Of a stretch of 10,543 nucleotides of DNA, positions 2,226 through 10,543 are shown one piece after another (within the stretch, counting starts at the first letter, position 1; every line of letters begins with the position of its first letter). The notes under the pieces are model-generated. The model had not been told where the DNA came from. It did no database searches and worked only from the letters and a program-made list of their open reading frames with translations. The stretch lies in the UHGV virus genome UHGV-0380619; one strand, given 5' to 3'. Origin of the DNA: a virus. Made by a program: the position numbers and the translations under genes.

Positions 2226-2302
2226 TGGCGCGTTGTACTGGATTCGAACCAGTGACCGATTGCTTAGAAGGCAATTGCTCTGTCCGGTTGAGCTAACAAC
2301 GC
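2226..2302 (-). tRNA. tRNA-Arg (anticodon UCU)
   Basis: Reverse complement folds as a cloverleaf: acceptor GCGTTGT/ACAACGC, anticodon stem ATTGC/GCAAT with loop CTTCTAA (anticodon TCT), T-arm ACTGG-TTCGAAT-CCAGT, 3' GCCA. Confidence 0.9.
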
Positions 2303-2315
2303 AGGGTACAGATAA

Positions 2316-2392
2316 TGGACCGCCATCGAGGACTCGAACCCCGCGCAACCAGCTTCGAAGGCTGGTGCTCTATCCTGATGAGCTAATGGCGG
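2316..2392 (-). tRNA. tRNA-Arg (anticodon UCG)
   Basis: Reverse complement: acceptor CCGCCAT/ATGGCGG, D-arm GCTC..GAGC, anticodon stem CCAGC/GCTGG with loop CTTCGAA (anticodon TCG), T-loop TTCGAGT, 3' TCCA. Confidence 0.85.
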
Positions 2393-2399
2393 TATGTGA

Positions 2400-2475
2400 T
2401 GGTGGCCCTTGCTGGATTTGAACCAGCGACCTGGCGATTATGAGTCGCTCGCTCTCACCACTGAGCTAAAGGGCC
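2400..2475 (-). tRNA. tRNA-Ile2 (anticodon CAU, lysidine type; alternatively tRNA-Met)
   Basis: Reverse complement GGCCCTTTAGCTCAGTGGTGAGAGCGAGCGACTCATAATCGCCAGGTCGCTGGTTCAAATCCAGCAAGGGCCACCA: anticodon loop CTCATAA, T-arm GCTGG-TTCAAAT-CCAGC. Closely resembles E. coli ileX as recalled. Confidence 0.85.
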
Positions 2476-2515: not shown

Positions 2516-2794
2516 TCATCCGTTCTGGCTGACTAAATCCTGTACTTCCCGAACCGTCTGCTCAAAACGTTCAGTCTCCAGCTCAACGCCAATTGCACGA
2601 CGCCCGAGCGCCAGTGCCGCTTTCACTGTCGAACCCGACCCCATGAAAAAATCTGCAATCAGGTCACCCGGACGACTGCTAGCGCTGATTATCTGCTGCA
2701 GCATTTCTGCCGGTTTTTCGCACGGATGTTTCCCGGGATAGAACTGCACCGGTTTATGCGTCCAGACATCGGTATACGGCACCTGCGCCGTCAC
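2516..2794 (-). pseudogene. Truncated N6/N4 DNA methyltransferase remnant (C-terminal portion only)
   Basis: Translation carries the C-terminal AdoMet-binding motif region (DLIADFFMGSGSTVKAALALGRRAIGVELE). No DPPY-containing N-terminal half; the reading frame closes at a stop at 2876-2878 and the first candidate start is GTG at 2794. Confidence 0.7.
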
Positions 2795-2945: not shown

Positions 2946-3326
2946 TTACTTTTTTAGCAGCCAGTCGTCCATCTCCAGTCTTACCCCCAGCACAGACAAA
3001 CATCCGTCAATAAACCCTTCGGCTATCTGCATCTCAATTCGTATTGCTTTTTCGCTTTTCTTTCTCGTCCTGGCTATCTGTCTTTTTGATATTCGCAACA
3101 AATAATGAGCAATGAGAAGCGAATACTCCTCAGGTTTTTTCTGCTTCAGACGAGCAAGACAGTTTTCAATGATAAGTCCGTCATCATCGCAGCAGGCCGG
3201 ACGTGGTTTAGTGGCAGATGGTAAAAGTCCTTTGAATCCGGCAGCGATCGGAGAATAGTCCACCCCGGTGTTACCACTTGCAGCCCATGCCCCCCAGCGT
3301 TCAAGAACCATCTGAATATCACGCAT
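2946..3326 (-). CDS. Q: Late-gene antiterminator Q (phage 82/21 / QuuD-like family)
   Basis: ATG at 3326 (MRDIQMVLERWGAWAA...) preceded by GGAGAAAG; the track's upstream start at 3341 is TTG. Cys-rich motif ACCDDDGLIIENC. Position immediately upstream of the tR'-like terminator and late region. Confidence 0.8.
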   Translation of the reverse strand: MRDIQMVLERWGAWAASGNTGVDYSPIAAGFKGLLPSATKPRPACCDDDGLIIENCLARLKQKKPEEYSLLIAHYLLRISKRQIARTRKKSEKAIRIEMQIAEGFIDGCLSVLGVRLEMDDWLLKK

Positions 3327-3343
3327 CAACTTTCTCCACAAAA

Positions 3344-6405: not shown

Positions 6406-7347
6406 TCACCCCCTGAATCCTTCCGGGATCTGGCTGTAGTCCACGTTGTCGTAACTGGCTTTGAAGTACGGGTCCTCACGTTTTTCTGTGTGCGTGCTGA
6501 CGGACGGCGATAAGCGCAGGGAAAGCTCATCCCATTTTTCCCGCAACTTCGACGGGCTGAGCACGTTACGGCACCAGAACGGATCACGGCTGACGCGGCT
6601 GTACATCTCGCAGATTTGTTTGTGAGTACGACCATCCTGCACACACATCAGGCGAATTTCGTTTGCCCATGCTGTCCAGTTCGGTTCTTTGGGACGAACC
6701 ACCTCGCCGTCACATTCGGCGGCCTGCTCGTACAGGGCGATGATTTTTTTCCAGAGCCACTGTGCGCAGGTCAAATCATCCTGCGTTCCCCACTGGCGCT
6801 TTTTAGGGCTGAATACAACCGCATCAGGATGGCGAGTTAAAAAATCCTGTTCAGCCGTCTGCGTGTCCGGTTGCAAAGCGTCCGGACGAGAAGGTTTTTT
6901 ATCTGACGGATCATGTTTTGATTTTACTGACGGATCCCCGCCAGATTCTGACGGGTGAAAACACGCTTTTTTGCCAGATTTCGACGCATCAAATTTTGAC
7001 GGGTCAGATTTTGATGCGTCAGATTTTGACGGGTCAGAATCTGACAGTTGAGAAAATGCCGCAGCCTGAAGCTTCGCAACGTTAAGCTGATAAACATTCG
7101 ACGCATTGCGGTTACCCTGGCGACGCGCCTTACGCGTTAACCAGCCTTCTGCTTCCAGCCGTGCGATAGCCGTTCTGACGGTACTCATCCCCGCGCCAAT
7201 CTGGCGGGCAATGGTTTCAATTGATGGCCAGCACACACCCTCGTCATTACTGAAATCAGCCAGACGGGCCATAATTGCCACACTGGATAATTTCATGCCT
7301 GACGCTGCGCAACCATCCCATACATAGCCGGTTAATTTGGTGCTCAC
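6406..7347 (-). CDS. Replication initiator (lambda O-like; HTH replisome-organiser N-domain with low-complexity linker)
   Basis: GTG start at 7347 preceded by a strong SD AAGGAGGTG with an in-frame TAA immediately upstream. N-terminal HTH region (LTGYVWDGCAASGMKLSSVAIMARLADFSNDEGVCWPSIETIARQ). Central pentapeptide repeats (SDPSK/SDASK) encoded by iterons. Confidence 0.8.
   Translation of the reverse strand: MSTKLTGYVWDGCAASGMKLSSVAIMARLADFSNDEGVCWPSIETIARQIGAGMSTVRTAIARLEAEGWLTRKARRQGNRNASNVYQLNVAKLQAAAFSQLSDSDPSKSDASKSDPSKFDASKSGKKACFHPSESGGDPSVKSKHDPSDKKPSRPDALQPDTQTAEQDFLTRHPDAVVFSPKKRQWGTQDDLTCAQWLWKKIIALYEQAAECDGEVVRPKEPNWTAWANEIRLMCVQDGRTHKQICEMYSRVSRDPFWCRNVLSPSKLREKWDELSLRLSPSVSTHTEKREDPYFKASYDNVDYSQIPEGFRG
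6901..7048. repeat. Origin-like iteron array inside the O-like gene (about 8 copies, consensus AGATTTTGACGGGTC, 15-bp period in the core)
   Basis: Repeated TCTGACGG(G/A)TC-type units at about 6903, 6926, 6947, 6980, 6996, 7011, 7026 and 7041. Each unit contains a short inverted repeat (TCTGAC..GTCAGA). An AT-richer stretch follows at 6891-6930. Confidence 0.7.
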
Positions 7348-8201
7348 TTACGCACCTCCTTATGCTTTTCGTTCAGTTCCGAGTCCACCAGCCCGGCAAC
7401 GAATACACCATCGTTGATGTAGTCGTAGAGCGATGAAGCCAGCGGAGACTGAACTGAAACCAGCATCGGATAAAGTTGTTCTAACCAAACGCGGTGAATT
7501 TCAGCCATGTAGAGGTAAACAACGTGGGCATTGTGCGCGACACATGAAGTATCAACCTTTCCGATCAGCGCCTGTTCCATCTGGTTAAAGGCATTGATGT
7601 ATGCCTCTTTGAACTGGGCAGCACGTTTACCCGTGAAACCCATAGCAAGAAACGCAAAGCCATCGCGGGTTATTTGATAGCAAGGTAGTTTGCGAGTACC
7701 GCCGTTGGGCTGGCGTACCAAAATTGATGTCTCCGCAAAATTGCGGGCACAAAACTCTGGAGAACAATCCAAAATGCGAATCTTTTTCAGAACATCGTCA
7801 TGACGTTTAGAGAAGAAGTCAGCAACAGCCAAAGAAGATGTAACAGCCTGACCATCAACGATGGCAATTTCAGGTTGAGAGAGGGTTGGGAGAGTAGTCA
7901 TAGTGACAGCCCCGGTAGTCAGTTTTTTAGAAAACTCACCACATGGGACGCCAATCACAGAGGTGGTGAGACGTACAGGGTTGGCGTTACCGGAGACTAC
8001 CGAACCCGGCCCGACCGAAGTCGGCCCTGTACGCCCCACCATAATTTGGGCGTAGCAATGCTCATGACACGAAAAAACCGCATGAGCGCGGTTATGCTCA
8101 GTAATCAATTTCAGGACGCCAATCCCGGCAACGGATTTTGCCGCTGCCAGAACAATATAACGCCCAGAATTATCAGAATCAATCATTACTGGTTTGCTCA
8201 T
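7344..8201 (-). CDS. Rha-family phage regulatory protein with an unassigned ~100-aa N-terminal extension
   Basis: Rha-like core from about residue 101 (MTTLPTLSQPEIAIVDGQAVTSSLAVADFFSKRHDDVLKKIRILD...). ATG at 8201 preceded by AAGGGA; alternative internal start ATG at 7901. The N-terminal 100 aa have coding-like codon usage. Stop overlaps the O-like GTG start. Confidence 0.65.
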   Translation of the reverse strand: MSKPVMIDSDNSGRYIVLAAAKSVAGIGVLKLITEHNRAHAVFSCHEHCYAQIMVGRTGPTSVGPGSVVSGNANPVRLTTSVIGVPCGEFSKKLTTGAVTMTTLPTLSQPEIAIVDGQAVTSSLAVADFFSKRHDDVLKKIRILDCSPEFCARNFAETSILVRQPNGGTRKLPCYQITRDGFAFLAMGFTGKRAAQFKEAYINAFNQMEQALIGKVDTSCVAHNAHVVYLYMAEIHRVWLEQLYPMLVSVQSPLASSLYDYINDGVFVAGLVDSELNEKHKEVRK

Positions 8202-8210
8202 GATCGTCCC

Positions 8211-8549
8211 TTATCTCCCTGAACTTTTGCCTGAAATGCTCAAGCGGGCTGAAGCATTCATGTTCATAGCCTTCACGGAGGTAGATAACCCGTTGTGTTT
8301 CCGGCTCCCAACGAATGACTCTGACGGGCACTCCGTAGTGATCTTTGAACCAGCGGTTAACTTGTCGCAAAGGACTGTCTCCTTCTGCCGGTTGAAATCC
8401 CCCACAGCCCACTCTGCAAAGCAGTGGGTTACAATTTCCCTGTCACCTGGTACATTCACTGCATAGCAATACTCCACCTTCGCTTTTCCACCCGGTACAG
8501 GAAGCGCAATCAGTTGCGAGCGACGGTAGTGTGTTGTTAAACTGTTCAT
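8211..8549 (-). CDS. Hypothetical protein (112 aa), translationally coupled to the upstream gene
   Basis: ATG at 8549 overlaps the upstream stop (ATGA) and is preceded by GGAGAAA. It overlaps in a different frame with a second protein-like ORF at 8179-8412, so the assignment is ambiguous. Confidence 0.4.
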
Positions 8550-9187
8550 GCGTTAGTTTCTCCACAACCAGAAGCAATCGACGCCACGACGCCCGGAGCT
8601 GCACACTCGCGGGCGTTACTCTTTTCCGGCGCACAAAAAACACGAAATAACAGTGTTAAATGCTCCTGCCACTTCGCCATTACTTGGTAGCTGTTCTCTT
8701 CGATTTGCTCACGCTCAGCTTGGTCAATAACTCCATCAGCAGTTGCCTTGCGTAAGTACTGGGAATGCTTGCCAATCCATTCTATTGACTCCATCAGCCG
8801 CTGATTAATGTCACCATTGTCAATGTCATCAATGACCACCAGCGGCACAAACACCCCATTACTACGACGGGCTATTGCATCCGTTACATGCCTGGTACCA
8901 CTGGCATCCTGTAAAACCATGGCCCACTCAAGTGGAAAAATTTGATCCCCACCGCTACGCAGTCTGTTATGCAATTGATCTTTTGCTGGGGTGATATCAT
9001 CAGATTTATACAAACCAAGAATTTCTGCTGCTTCCTCATAGCCATGAGGTAAATCAGCAATCGTTCTTCGTATTGCTGCCACCAGCCATGCTGGTTGCTT
9101 ATCAACTTTCCATTCAGGTTCTTTACCCACGTTTAAGCCCTCATATCTGTGGTTTCTGTAAATCGATTTATCCATTAGATTTTTCAT
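8546..9187 (-). CDS. CII-like / YdaT-like early regulatory protein (family uncertain)
   Basis: Long ORF immediately downstream of the Cro-like gene. Start not resolved: ATG at 9187 or 9175, both with weak SD; the track start at 9244 is GTG and would overlap cro extensively. Confidence 0.5.
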
Positions 9188-9368
9188 AAAGCTCAGGTTT
9201 AAATGGCAACCGTCCGCAAGTTCTATATGCAGCCTCTGCTGCACGTCCTTTTGGAATTAACTGGCCAGGACGGTTTCGCCACTGATAAACGGCTTCAGTT
9301 GTTATGCCGAAAAAAGCAGCAACTTTCTCAATGCTGCCGAAGTAGCTTTCGATATCGTCAGTCGTCAT
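9168..9368 (-). CDS. cro: Cro-like repressor (YdaS-type HTH)
   Basis: 66-aa ORF. ATG at 9368 preceded by GGAGGG. Motif VAAFFGITTEAVYQWRNRPGQLIPKGRAAEA resembles the YdaS/Cro family. Divergent from the CI gene across an operator-rich intergenic region. Confidence 0.75.
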   Translation of the reverse strand: MTTDDIESYFGSIEKVAAFFGITTEAVYQWRNRPGQLIPKGRAAEAAYRTCGRLPFKPELYEKSNG

Positions 9369-9465
9369 ATGCCCTCCAAACTAAGTTTTATTAGATGTTA
9401 ATTATCAATCTATCTTAGGTCAATAAAAACTAAGATTACTTAGTAATTAAAGAAATGGTGCTCCT
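9369..9465. promoter_or_regulatory. Immunity-region control region: three operator-like 18-bp sites plus candidate pR (and implied pRM)
   Basis: Sites AACTAAGTTTTATTAGAT (9379-9396), AACTAAGATTACTTAGTA (9428-9445) and a weaker reverse-orientation site ACCTAAGATAGATTGATA (9403-9420), with centres 24-25 bp apart. Candidate minus-strand pR: -35 TTGACC (9418-9423), 17-bp spacer, -10 TAACAT (9395-9400). Confidence 0.55.
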
Positions 9466-10092
9466 ATGGAAACGGTTGGTCAGCGTATAAAAGCTCTGAG
9501 AAGAGTTACCAGAACGTCCCAGAAAGAATTGGGTAAATTTTGTGGAGTAAGTGACGTTGCTGTGGGGTACTGGGAGAAAGACATCAATGTCCCTGGTGGG
9601 GAAGCACTTTCAAAATTAGCGAAGTTCTTCAATACGTCAATAGATTACATTCTTTATGGTGCGGAGTTTGAAGGCAAACTCGTCACAAACATGCGCAGAG
9701 TTCCTGTAATCTCGTGGGTTCAGGCTGGGCAGTTTACTGAGTGCAGGACAGCAGAAGTGTTTAGTGAAGTAGACAAGTGGGTAGATACATCATTAAAGAT
9801 TGGTGATAACTCATTTGCATTGGAGGTTAAAGGCGACTCCATGACTAACCCTAACGGCCTCCCAACAATACCAGAAGGCGCAACAGTGATTGTAGATCCT
9901 GATGCAGAACCCCGGCATGGAAAAATAGTCATCGCTAGACTTGATGGAACAAACGAAGCCACAGTAAAAAAATTAGTTATCGATGGCCCTCAAAAGTTTT
10001 TAGTGCCATTAAATCCCCGGTACCCCAACATCCCGATCAATGGTAATTGCCTCATCATTGGTGTAGTCAAAGGAGTTCAATACGAACTCTAG
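9466..10092 (+). CDS. cI: CI-type prophage repressor (HTH-XRE N-domain plus LexA-like S24 autopeptidase C-domain)
   Basis: 208-aa ORF. N-terminal HTH (QKELGKFCGVSDVAVGYWEKD). C-terminal S24 motifs: GDSM (Ser nucleophile) and VKKL (Lys), with a QAG candidate cleavage region. Confidence 0.9.
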   Translation: METVGQRIKALRRVTRTSQKELGKFCGVSDVAVGYWEKDINVPGGEALSKLAKFFNTSIDYILYGAEFEGKLVTNMRRVPVISWVQAGQFTECRTAEVFSEVDKWVDTSLKIGDNSFALEVKGDSMTNPNGLPTIPEGATVIVDPDAEPRHGKIVIARLDGTNEATVKKLVIDGPQKFLVPLNPRYPNIPINGNCLIIGVVKGVQYEL

Positions 10093-10112
10093 CCCCCCTT
10101 TTCTCTAACCAA

Positions 10113-10148
10113 AACACCGAACTAAGAAAAGTTTGGTGTTTTCTCTTG
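10113..10148 (+). terminator. Intrinsic terminator downstream of cI
   Basis: AACACCGAAC / GTTTGGTGTT stem (10113-10122 and 10131-10140, one G.U), 8-nt loop, followed by a T-rich run TTCTCTTG. Confidence 0.55.
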
Positions 10149-10180
10149 CCATCAAAACTAAGTTAAGTTAGATTTTATAT
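10146..10180 (+). promoter_or_regulatory. OL-like operator with candidate pL
   Basis: AACTAAGTTAAGTTAGAT at 10156-10173 shares the AACTAA-N6-TTAGAT pattern with the OR sites. Candidate -35 TTGCCA (10146-10151), 17-bp spacer, -10 TAGATT (10169-10174). Confidence 0.4.
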
Positions 10181-10281
10181 CAAAGATAACGAACAGGCAG
10201 GACGCCCACGAAGTAGCCGCCCGGGGCATATGAAGTCCAGGATGATTCGTTAGCAACAAAAAAGCGCCCTACAGGACGCTT

Positions 10282-10293
10282 AGCTCTTTAACA
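10282..10293 (+). promoter_or_regulatory. boxA-like antitermination element (GCTCTTTAACAA) downstream of the candidate pL
   Basis: 12/12 match to the rrn-type boxA core as recalled. A GC hairpin (about 10262-10279) lies immediately upstream rather than downstream. Confidence 0.35.
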
Positions 10294-10543
10294 ATCTTGG
10301 TATCCCCGTAACAAAAGAGGGTTCTATGGTCATATTCTGTGCTTACGTTCATCCTAATGGATTTTTTATCAGCACCAACCAACAAGACGAATTCTGGATT
10401 CTATGAACCGCCCCGGGTTTCCTGGAGAGTATTTTATCTGTGAACTCAGGCTGCCAGATCATCGTTTCCGATGGAAGCATAATAAGCTTTTTCTGCTTCT
10501 GCCGGAGGAGTATGGCCCAGCCTTTCCAGCAATCGTCGATTGT

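Follow-up and report, generated by a model that had tools for sequence, protein, structure and literature searches.

Copies of one 18-bp motif stand on both sides of the CI-like repressor gene in a viral DNA of 10,543 bp (UHGV virus genome UHGV-0380619), which was analysed whole and is called the window below. Which proteins would these copies serve, and to which of the known switches does the locus belong? Reading from the sequence, we consider it highly probable that they serve as CI/Cro operators in a lysis/lysogeny switch of the P22 type (immC-like). Direct observations are the sites and their non-random placement, conservation, covariation with recognition helix 3 of the repressor and positional orthology to annotated P22 features. 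The locus likely represents a common, previously undescribed immunity type, bringing a new specificity and not a new mechanism or regulatory principle.

A preliminary description of the locus had proposed the shared motif, with sites both between cro and cI and downstream of cI. Searching the window for AACTAANNNNNNTTAGWW (AACTAA-N6-TTAGWW) bears this out: three exact matches are found, two intergenic (9379-9396 and 9428-9445) and one downstream (10156-10173). All flank the CI-like gene and none lies elsewhere, against a chance expectation of about 0.01 matches in the window; three were reached in 0 of 200 shuffles. Allowing two mismatches adds a single match, 10120-10137, within the CI terminator. 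The CTAAG half-site pointed out earlier in the loop of that terminator is indeed there, at 10122-10126 at the top of the hairpin, but the pentamer alone is not enriched in the window (10 found versus 13 expected): the signal is the dyad, not CTAAG.

The motif is better written as AACTAAG-N4-CTTAGTT, an 18-bp dyad of 7+4+7 positions with an A/T centre. Its symmetrised consensus is AACTAAG-TTAA-CTTAGTT, with a variable, A/T-rich centre; the CTAA/TTAG core holds most of the information, at 1.7 bits per position, and the middle little. The centres of the three exact sites are pure A/T (TTTT, ATTA and TTAA). A first position weight matrix (PWM) contained the window's own sites; rebuilt from loci outside E. 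coli only, it left the ranking unchanged: of about 10,500 positions in the window, the three exact sites take the top three places, with 28.9, 24.4 and 22.9 bits. In the 3.8-5.6-kb loci of relatives, PWM matches of at least 10 bits are almost confined to immunity-region positions.

The divergent Cro-like and CI-like open reading frames (ORFs), on the minus and plus strands respectively, are separated by 97 bp. The two genes and the features of the right operator region (O_R) between them are as follows.

9168..9368, minus strand: cro-like gene, 66 aa (Pfam P22_Cro, E 4.4e-11; 30% identity to P22 Cro, E 4e-9).
9379..9396, no strand: O_R1, AACTAAGTTTTATTAGAT, exact motif match, 22.9 bits, covering the region where pR starts and the final 2 bp of its -10.
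9395..9400, minus strand: pR -10, TAACAT, from the promoter scan; TAATAT or TAGCAT at the same position in relatives.
9403..9420, no strand: putative weak O_R2, TATCAATCTATCTTAGGT, placed by the 24/25-bp register, a PWM score of 1.0 bit and alignment to P22 O_R2.
9418..9423, minus strand: pR -35, TTGACC, from the promoter scan, sharing the final 3 bp of O_R2 like its P22 counterpart.
9428..9445, no strand: O_R3, AACTAAGATTACTTAGTA, exact match, 24.4 bits, aligning with the annotated P22 O_R3.
9431..9436, plus strand: predicted pRM -10, TAAGAT, by homology to P22 pRM, inside O_R3 and invariant in the O_R alignment.
9466..10092, plus strand: CI-like repressor, 208 aa (Pfam HTH_3 and Peptidase_S24).

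The 16-bp core of O_R3, ACTAAG-ATTA-CTTAGT, is a perfect palindrome. A consensus promoter scan of 9100-10543 returned two promoter-like sites only, a leftward pR-like one and a rightward pL-like one, and both overlap motif copies. The minus-strand hexamers of the former lie where the intergenic sites had been said to overlap the -35 and -10 of pR. The scan missed pRM, as expected of an activator-dependent promoter. In P22, TAAGAT has the same place in O_R3, at the downstream end of the annotated pRM and 6 nucleotides (nt) before the RM transcript start. By this analogy the pRM -10 of the window would lie at 9431-9436 and its start near 9442, giving a CI leader of about 24 nt, in which a Shine-Dalgarno-like GGTG is found. 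For pR and pL, starts are predicted near 9388 (minus strand) and 10181 (plus strand).

The genes point to the same relative. The CI-like protein is 47% identical to P22 C2 over 205 aa (E 1e-65). Compared with solved structures, its C-terminal domain resembles that of lambda CI (E 3.6e-28) and its N-terminal domain that of P22 C2 (E 6e-10), with PDB entries 1ADR, 2R1J and 3JXB matched by the latter. Ala87-Gly88, Ser125 and Lys168, the autocleavage residues, are invariant in the alignment with P22 C2 and relatives; together with the S24 domain, they indicate a LexA-like repressor that is inducible through self-cleavage.

Annotated in the P22 record are O_R1-3 (66 bp), pR, pRM, the RM transcript start, O_L1-3 and pL. 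Both phages combine a C2-homologous repressor with a Cro of the P22_Cro family, and both have 18-bp dyads that fit the layout of 7 contacted, 4 uncontacted A/T and 7 contacted positions. In the orientation of the window, P22 O_R1 ATTAAAGAACACTTAAAT, O_R2 ACTAAAGGAATCTTTAGT and O_R3 ATTTAAGATGACTTAACT start 23 and 25 bp apart, versus 24 and 25 bp in the window. An alignment of nine sequences sets the three O_R sites of the window on those of P22, column for column. Its invariant columns are TCAA of the pR -35, TAAGAT of the pRM -10, and CTTA; TAAGAT inside O_R3 and the pR -35 over the last 3 bp of O_R2 are common to both phages. In P22, however, O_R3 abuts the ATG, whereas the window has its leader of about 24 nt in between. 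The lambda O_R1-3/O_L logic invoked in the preliminary description is supported, with the refinement that the true homologue is P22 immC, not lambda.

The proposal to search for the motif in related prophages was followed at two depths. The near-identical set comprises 82 loci with CI 97-100% identical, namely 80 IMG/VR contigs and two GenBank phages; the IMG/VR search with CI gave only copies 98-100% identical, which served as a fine-scale footprint and are uninformative on divergence. The graded series of CI sequences came from a genome collection with one genome per species. The O_R3 core CTAAGATNNCTTAG occurs once, 36 bp before the CI ATG, in 82 of 82 near-identical loci, and the motif thereby passes the refuting condition set in the preliminary description for phages with near-identical repressors. 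It is present in most relatives with the same helix 3, and absent both from P22 and from all 58 loci whose best CI match is at most 50% identical.

The same-helix relatives are 20 loci with CI 63-90% identical and helix 3 of the form S[DG]V[AST]VGYWEKD, from Enterobacter, Kosakonia, Kluyvera, Serratia, Rahnella, Yersinia, Rouxiella, Providencia, Proteus and the uncultured gammaproteobacterium L104. All but one have, 36-49 bp before the ATG, a CI-proximal site that reads ACTAAGAT..CTTAGT or departs from it by one mismatch; the exception is an uncultured Serratia metagenome-assembled genome (L095), with a single site 83 bp upstream. In the 18 loci tabulated, from nine genera, the distance from there to a Cro-proximal nCTAAGTT...TTAGA, further upstream, is exactly 49 bp, and most relatives also have AACTAAGTTAAGTTAGATT between the -35 and -10 downstream of CI. 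Cro orthologues, 61-85% identical, adjoin CI in 14 relatives. In Serratia aquatilis (L088), Rouxiella (L091-L093) and L104, the same type of CI and two O_R-like sites adjoin a gene for a Q-like antiterminator; in these loci both the Cro gene and the O_L sites are absent. They may be remnants, or a different type of element in which CI controls Q directly. In L104, two further strong sites, at -569 and -520, form another pair about 480 bp upstream.

The near-identical E. coli prophages comprise 16 distinct variants of O_R and 40 of O_L, among which flanks and centres differ but the CTAAG/TTAG cores never do; the core bases of O_R1, which aligns with the annotated P22 O_R1, are unchanged in all 16 O_R variants. 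Across genera, O_R1 and O_L1 are asymmetric (left ACTAAG, right TTAGAT) and O_R3 is symmetric (ACTAAG...CTTAGT). This asymmetry could reflect the overlap with -10 hexamers, or preferences of CI versus Cro as in lambda. The region is present in 513 of 5,426 complete E. coli genomes (about 9%), with matches of 90-100%. In three named phages, mEp460_4F5, vB_EcoS-569R4 and vB_EcoM-689R6, the CI-cro region is present in full, with 95-99% of nucleotides identical and the operators the same. The match to phage Kati starts at the CI start codon, its O_R lying outside the matched stretch, and LLS is matched solely via the CI N-terminal domain (89% identical). The switch itself does not differ between the named Escherichia phages and the window, whereas the flanking modules do (mosaicism). 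In the records examined, CI goes under the label LexA-like protein or cI, and operators are not annotated. The operator strings are absent from the literature searched, and none of the mEp460 papers listed deals with operators.

What sets this switch apart from that of P22 is its sequence specificity. The P22 half-site is ATTTAAG and its helix 3 SNVAISQWERS; in place of this pairing of ATTTAAG with SNVAISQW, the window has AACTAAG with SDVAVGYW, in a helix 3 that reads SDVAVGYWEKD in full. The P22 repressor binds six symmetric 18-bp sites and contacts positions 2-7 and 12-17; it reads the central four base pairs indirectly, preferring A/T, and requires the acidic E44 for this readout (PMC4267663). 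With C·G in place of T·A at position 3, and likewise at its partner 16, the P22 operator is bound by the P22 repressor only at the non-specific level (PMC4267663). The window half-site differs from that of P22 at positions 2 and 3 and has C at position 3; by analogy with this substitution, it is predicted to be incompatible with specific binding of the P22 repressor. The difference at positions 2-3 would therefore define a separate immunity specificity within the P22 C2 family. The distinct operator sequence claimed from the outset is consistent with this, while the A/T centres fit an indirect readout of the P22 type.

Two sub-groups with CI at most 50% identical were inspected for half-sites. 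In Photorhabdus/Xenorhabdus, the helix SHVA[IV]SQWEKE goes with sites ATTTAAG-N4-CTTAAnT at -67, -43 and -18, 24 and 25 bp apart, of which the clear middle one is ACTAAAGGAATCTTAAGT. In Proteus/Morganella, the helix NRVTVTGWEKG goes with ATGTAAG-N4-CCTACAT and with two O_L sites 35 bp apart across the -35. Three helix-3 classes, SQW, GYW and TGW, thus pair with half-sites ATTTAAG, AACTAAG and ATGTAAG in one fixed architecture. This covariation, and the persistence of sites by CI in Serratia aquatilis and Rouxiella where Cro is absent, argue that the motif follows the repressor. It is suggestive only that both CI (GYW for SQW) and Cro (YQW for SQW) carry a tyrosine in helix 3 that their P22 counterparts do not have.

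On the other side of the repressor gene, the left operator region (O_L) comprises the following elements.

10111..10142, plus strand: CI intrinsic terminator hairpin, a 13-bp stem followed by UUUUCUCUU.
10120..10137, no strand: O_L2 candidate, AACTAAGAAAAGTTTGGT, inside the terminator, 6.8 bits, P=7e-4 (AT-rich null).
10146..10151, plus strand: pL -35, TTGCCA, from the promoter scan; TTGACC, TTGACA or TTGAAT in relatives.
10156..10173, no strand: O_L1, AACTAAGTTAAGTTAGAT, exact match, scoring higher than any other window position by PWM (28.9 bits), placed after the pL -35 and overlapping the pL -10.
10169..10174, plus strand: pL -10, TAGATT, from the promoter scan, overlapping the right end of O_L1 as pL and O_L1 of P22 do.

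A site over a candidate pL downstream of the cI terminator had been predicted, and O_L1, overlapping the pL-like -10, confirms it. Enterobacter, Kosakonia, Kluyvera and Rahnella share its 16-bp core ACTAAGTTAAGTTAGA without change, and Serratia sp. Ag1 has it with one change; positions 10158-10174 are invariant among the 40 E. coli O_L variants. The -35 of P22 pL, TTGACC, has the same position relative to O_L1 as TTGCCA of the window. The terminator folds with a free energy of -15.6 kcal/mol (z -5.08), a value equalled by 0 of 200 shuffles, and the hairpin is the consensus of nine relatives, with wobble changes and one compensatory pair.

The half-site in the terminator is, to judge from its sequence and position, probably part of an O_L2. 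The candidate starts 36 bp upstream of O_L1, as the P22 O_L2 lies 35 bp upstream of its O_L1, the pair in P22 spanning the -35 TTGACC; clean second O_L sites stand 34-35 bp from O_L1 in Yersinia, Providencia and Proteus/Morganella. The overlap with the CI terminator sets the window apart from P22, as does the annotated P22 O_L3, no counterpart of which is recognisable in the window.

The match could instead be a chance by-product of hairpin symmetry, leaving O_L with a single site, and we regard this as a serious possibility that falls somewhat below an even chance. Its right half, GTTTGG, forms the descending arm of the stem, opposite CCGAAC, with which it pairs; only three of its six right-half positions match, and the score is 6.8 bits where the strong sites have 23-29. 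Against this reading speak the spacing from O_L1 and the flanking of the pL -35 just described, and the 10.7-17.8 bits scored by the same position in Enterobacter, Kosakonia, Kluyvera and Rahnella. Conservation also has the pattern of an operator and not of a free loop: CTAA is identical in 9 of 9 aligned sequences and the unpaired loop AAG is kept in 8 of 9, while the central four bases vary.

Taking the candidate as a genuine O_L2, we tentatively put forward, at slightly less than even odds, that the terminator doubles as this operator. About 20 bp would serve both as the RNA hairpin ending the cI transcript and as a weak DNA site for the repressor, acting with O_L1 across the pL -35. The arrangement would have evolved in the E. 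coli/Enterobacter/Kluyvera/Rahnella branch from a separate terminator and a clean O_L2, as still found in Yersinia, Providencia and Proteus. A second, lesser proposal is that the pairs of helix 3 and half-site make up a natural specificity series for the P22 C2 fold.

The middle site of O_R calls for a similar weighing. The preliminary description counted three intergenic sites 24-25 bp apart; the 24/25-bp register is there, but only two sites match, since 9403-9420 misses 4 of 12 specified positions and escapes the proposed pattern even with two mismatches. Its PWM score of 1.0 bit (P=0.004, AT-rich null, at a pre-specified position) is negative in 9 of 16 relatives. The TTAG of the window is a minority allele: at position 9417, another base is found in at least 9 of the 16 distinct O_R variants from E. 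coli, and most relatives have CTTTGG in its place. Possibly, then, O_R has two operators only, O_R1 and O_R3, with no cooperative filling of O_R1 and O_R2, as reported for phage 933W, the middle bases being kept as pR -35 and pRM -35/spacer. The best-conserved of these bases, GGTCAA, are indeed the pR -35, the TCAA of which is invariant in all nine aligned O_R regions, P22 included, and a lambdoid repressor without cooperativity is documented (PMC3317979).

We nonetheless consider a two-operator O_R unlikely. The middle site is in the exact register of the experimentally defined P22 O_R2, and clear sites occupy this position in Photorhabdus/Xenorhabdus (ACTAAAGGAATCTTAAGT) and in Rahnella (ACTAATCTTTATTAGG, 10.3 bits). 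In 15 of 16 relatives the position ranks 6th to 35th of about 5,600. The bases retained are dyad-symmetric (C4, A6, A7 / T14, T15, G17, in a 20-mer register) and reach past the -35 hexamer. In lambda CI it is the C-terminal domain that mediates cooperativity, and this domain is closely lambda/P22-like in the window. The lambdoid phages that have been studied well possess an O_R2 that is by itself the weakest of the sites and depends on cooperativity for its filling (PMC3317979); a weak O_R2 is thus what one would expect here. We therefore keep the middle site as a putative weak O_R2, on positional and PWM grounds.

That the dyad is bound by a protein other than CI (Cro alone, a cII/YmfL-like protein or a host factor), or is mere promoter architecture, is very improbable: Cro accompanies CI in most relatives and is hard to separate from it, and the sites overlap promoter hexamers, but the motif follows CI where no Cro or cII-like neighbour exists (Serratia aquatilis, Rouxiella), switches along with the CI recognition helix, has P22-operator geometry in three copies that share far more than -35/-10 hexamers, and is unlike the LexA box, CTGT-N8-ACAG.

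Downstream of O_L1, the pL leader contains one more element common to P22 and the window.

10283..10294, plus strand: boxA-like element, GCTCTTTAACAA, in the pL leader, rrn-like, a unique match in the window.

This boxA supports pL as the early-left promoter. P22 nutL has CGCTCTTTAAC, and the generally similar pL leaders of P22 and the window, with boxA in both, share CAGGACGC...GTAGCC. The leader (10188-10314) is 84-98% conserved in many lambdoid phages of other immunity types, where it bears no annotation; those sharing it are SfII, SfIV, SfV, ST64B, phiNP and Yersinia and Klebsiella phages. No convincing boxB follows boxA in the leader; a hairpin at 10262-10281 precedes boxA and does not follow it. 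A search of 10090-10420, leader and terminator, against Rfam gave only a sub-threshold match to Phe_leader (E 0.16), which we rejected.

Read on the minus strand, the same hairpin (10281-10262), with TTTTTGTTGCT after it, has the score of an intrinsic terminator, a hint of antisense transcription across the pL leader. No promoter was found upstream for such a transcript, and the minus-strand fold of 10245-10345 is no better than that of shuffles (z -0.78).

The end of an IS3-family insertion sequence (TGAACCGCCCCGGG...) lies at about 10401-10543; thousands of enterobacterial plasmids carry copies 99% identical to it. The insertion truncates the small ORF that comes first in the pL operon and has its ATG at 10327, so this prophage copy is probably without early-left genes. 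In E. coli E2863, with a CI region 100% identical, a helix-turn-helix (HTH) gene and yfdP/Q/R genes stand in its place.

Several points weigh against an intact P22-type switch with all its sites. The O_R2 score is barely above background, and part of the conservation there could come from the overlapping pR -35 and pRM -35 region. The terminator stem needs the right half of the O_L2 candidate, which means that the partial match may have arisen from the hairpin. A lambda-like order of affinities (O_R1 > O_R3) is not deducible, because O_R3 fits the consensus at least equally well. E44 of P22 is Val in the CI of the window, and details of the indirect readout may differ. Finally, the pL -35 is weaker than those of relatives and an IS3-family element disrupts the pL operon, so that this particular copy of the prophage is possibly a defective one.

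Homology to P22 and lambda, from which we infer protein binding, cooperativity, affinity order, pRM activation and the binding of Cro, suggests that the switch would work as follows. A CI dimer, each monomer consisting of a P22-C2-like HTH and an intact LexA/S24-type autocleavage domain, would read one 7-bp AACTAAG half-site per monomer, the two half-sites being separated by four uncontacted A/T base pairs. In the lysogen, CI bound at O_R1 and, cooperatively, at the weak O_R2 would block pR and keep Cro and the early-right genes off. CI at O_R2 probably stimulates pRM, whose -10 TAAGAT lies in O_R3; at high CI concentration O_R3 would be filled as well and pRM turned off. On the left, O_L1, with the probable weak O_L2 in the terminator, would block pL. 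RecA-stimulated self-cleavage at Ala87-Gly88 would lift repression, after which Cro would take the same sites and turn pRM off.

With lambda, the locus shares divergent cI and cro genes, an O_R over pR and the predicted pRM that is probably tripartite, with a weak middle site, an O_L over pL, and a homologous CI C-terminal domain with its Ala-Gly, Ser and Lys autocleavage residues. Lambda operators are 17-bp pseudo-dyads around a central base pair, with the consensus TATCACCGCCAGTGGTA, whereas the sites of the window are even-length 18-bp dyads of unrelated sequence; neither the CI N-terminal domain nor Cro is of the lambda type. Unlike lambda, the locus has no rexAB genes, which leaves a distance of only about 730-780 bp between O_L and O_R. 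Another lambdoid switch with its own operator sequence is that of 933W, which has two O_L sites only and a repressor reported to be non-cooperative, with an unusual affinity order (PMC3317979). Going by this description, the window resembles 933W in its own operator sequence and in the two O_L sites that it seems to have, but nothing in it suggests the other two properties.

The remaining features lie to the left of cro.

8546..9244, minus strand: CII/CP76-like gene, the next gene after cro.
8071-8147, minus strand: IsrK RNA (Rfam, 68.6 bits).
7959-8046, minus strand: C4 antisense RNA (Rfam, 82 bits).
7344-8201, minus strand: 285-aa ORF with Ash and Rha antirepressor-like domains.
2946-3341, minus strand: Q-like antiterminator gene.
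2516-2794, minus strand: ORF resembling a truncated DNA methyltransferase.
1950-2149 and 2229-2475, minus strand: STnc100 small RNA (133 bits) and three tRNA genes, between the Q-like gene and the lysis genes.

The C4 and IsrK matches fall in the 5' third of the 285-aa ORF, so its first third may be RNA-coding and not protein-coding. The C4/IsrK locus looks like a secondary immunity module in the early-right operon, P1/P7 immI-like or Gifsy-1 IsrK-like; if so, the immunity of the prophage may not rest on CI and its operators alone.

These results assign operators, promoters and an immunity specificity to the repressor found in about 9% of complete E. coli genomes and in several sequenced phages, mEp460_4F5 among them. 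They allow prediction of which co-resident or incoming phages would be homo-immune, and the design of reporter and induction constructs. For the P22 family, the locus offers a natural test of how two or three residue changes in helix 3 re-target a P22-type HTH from ATTTAAG to AACTAAG.

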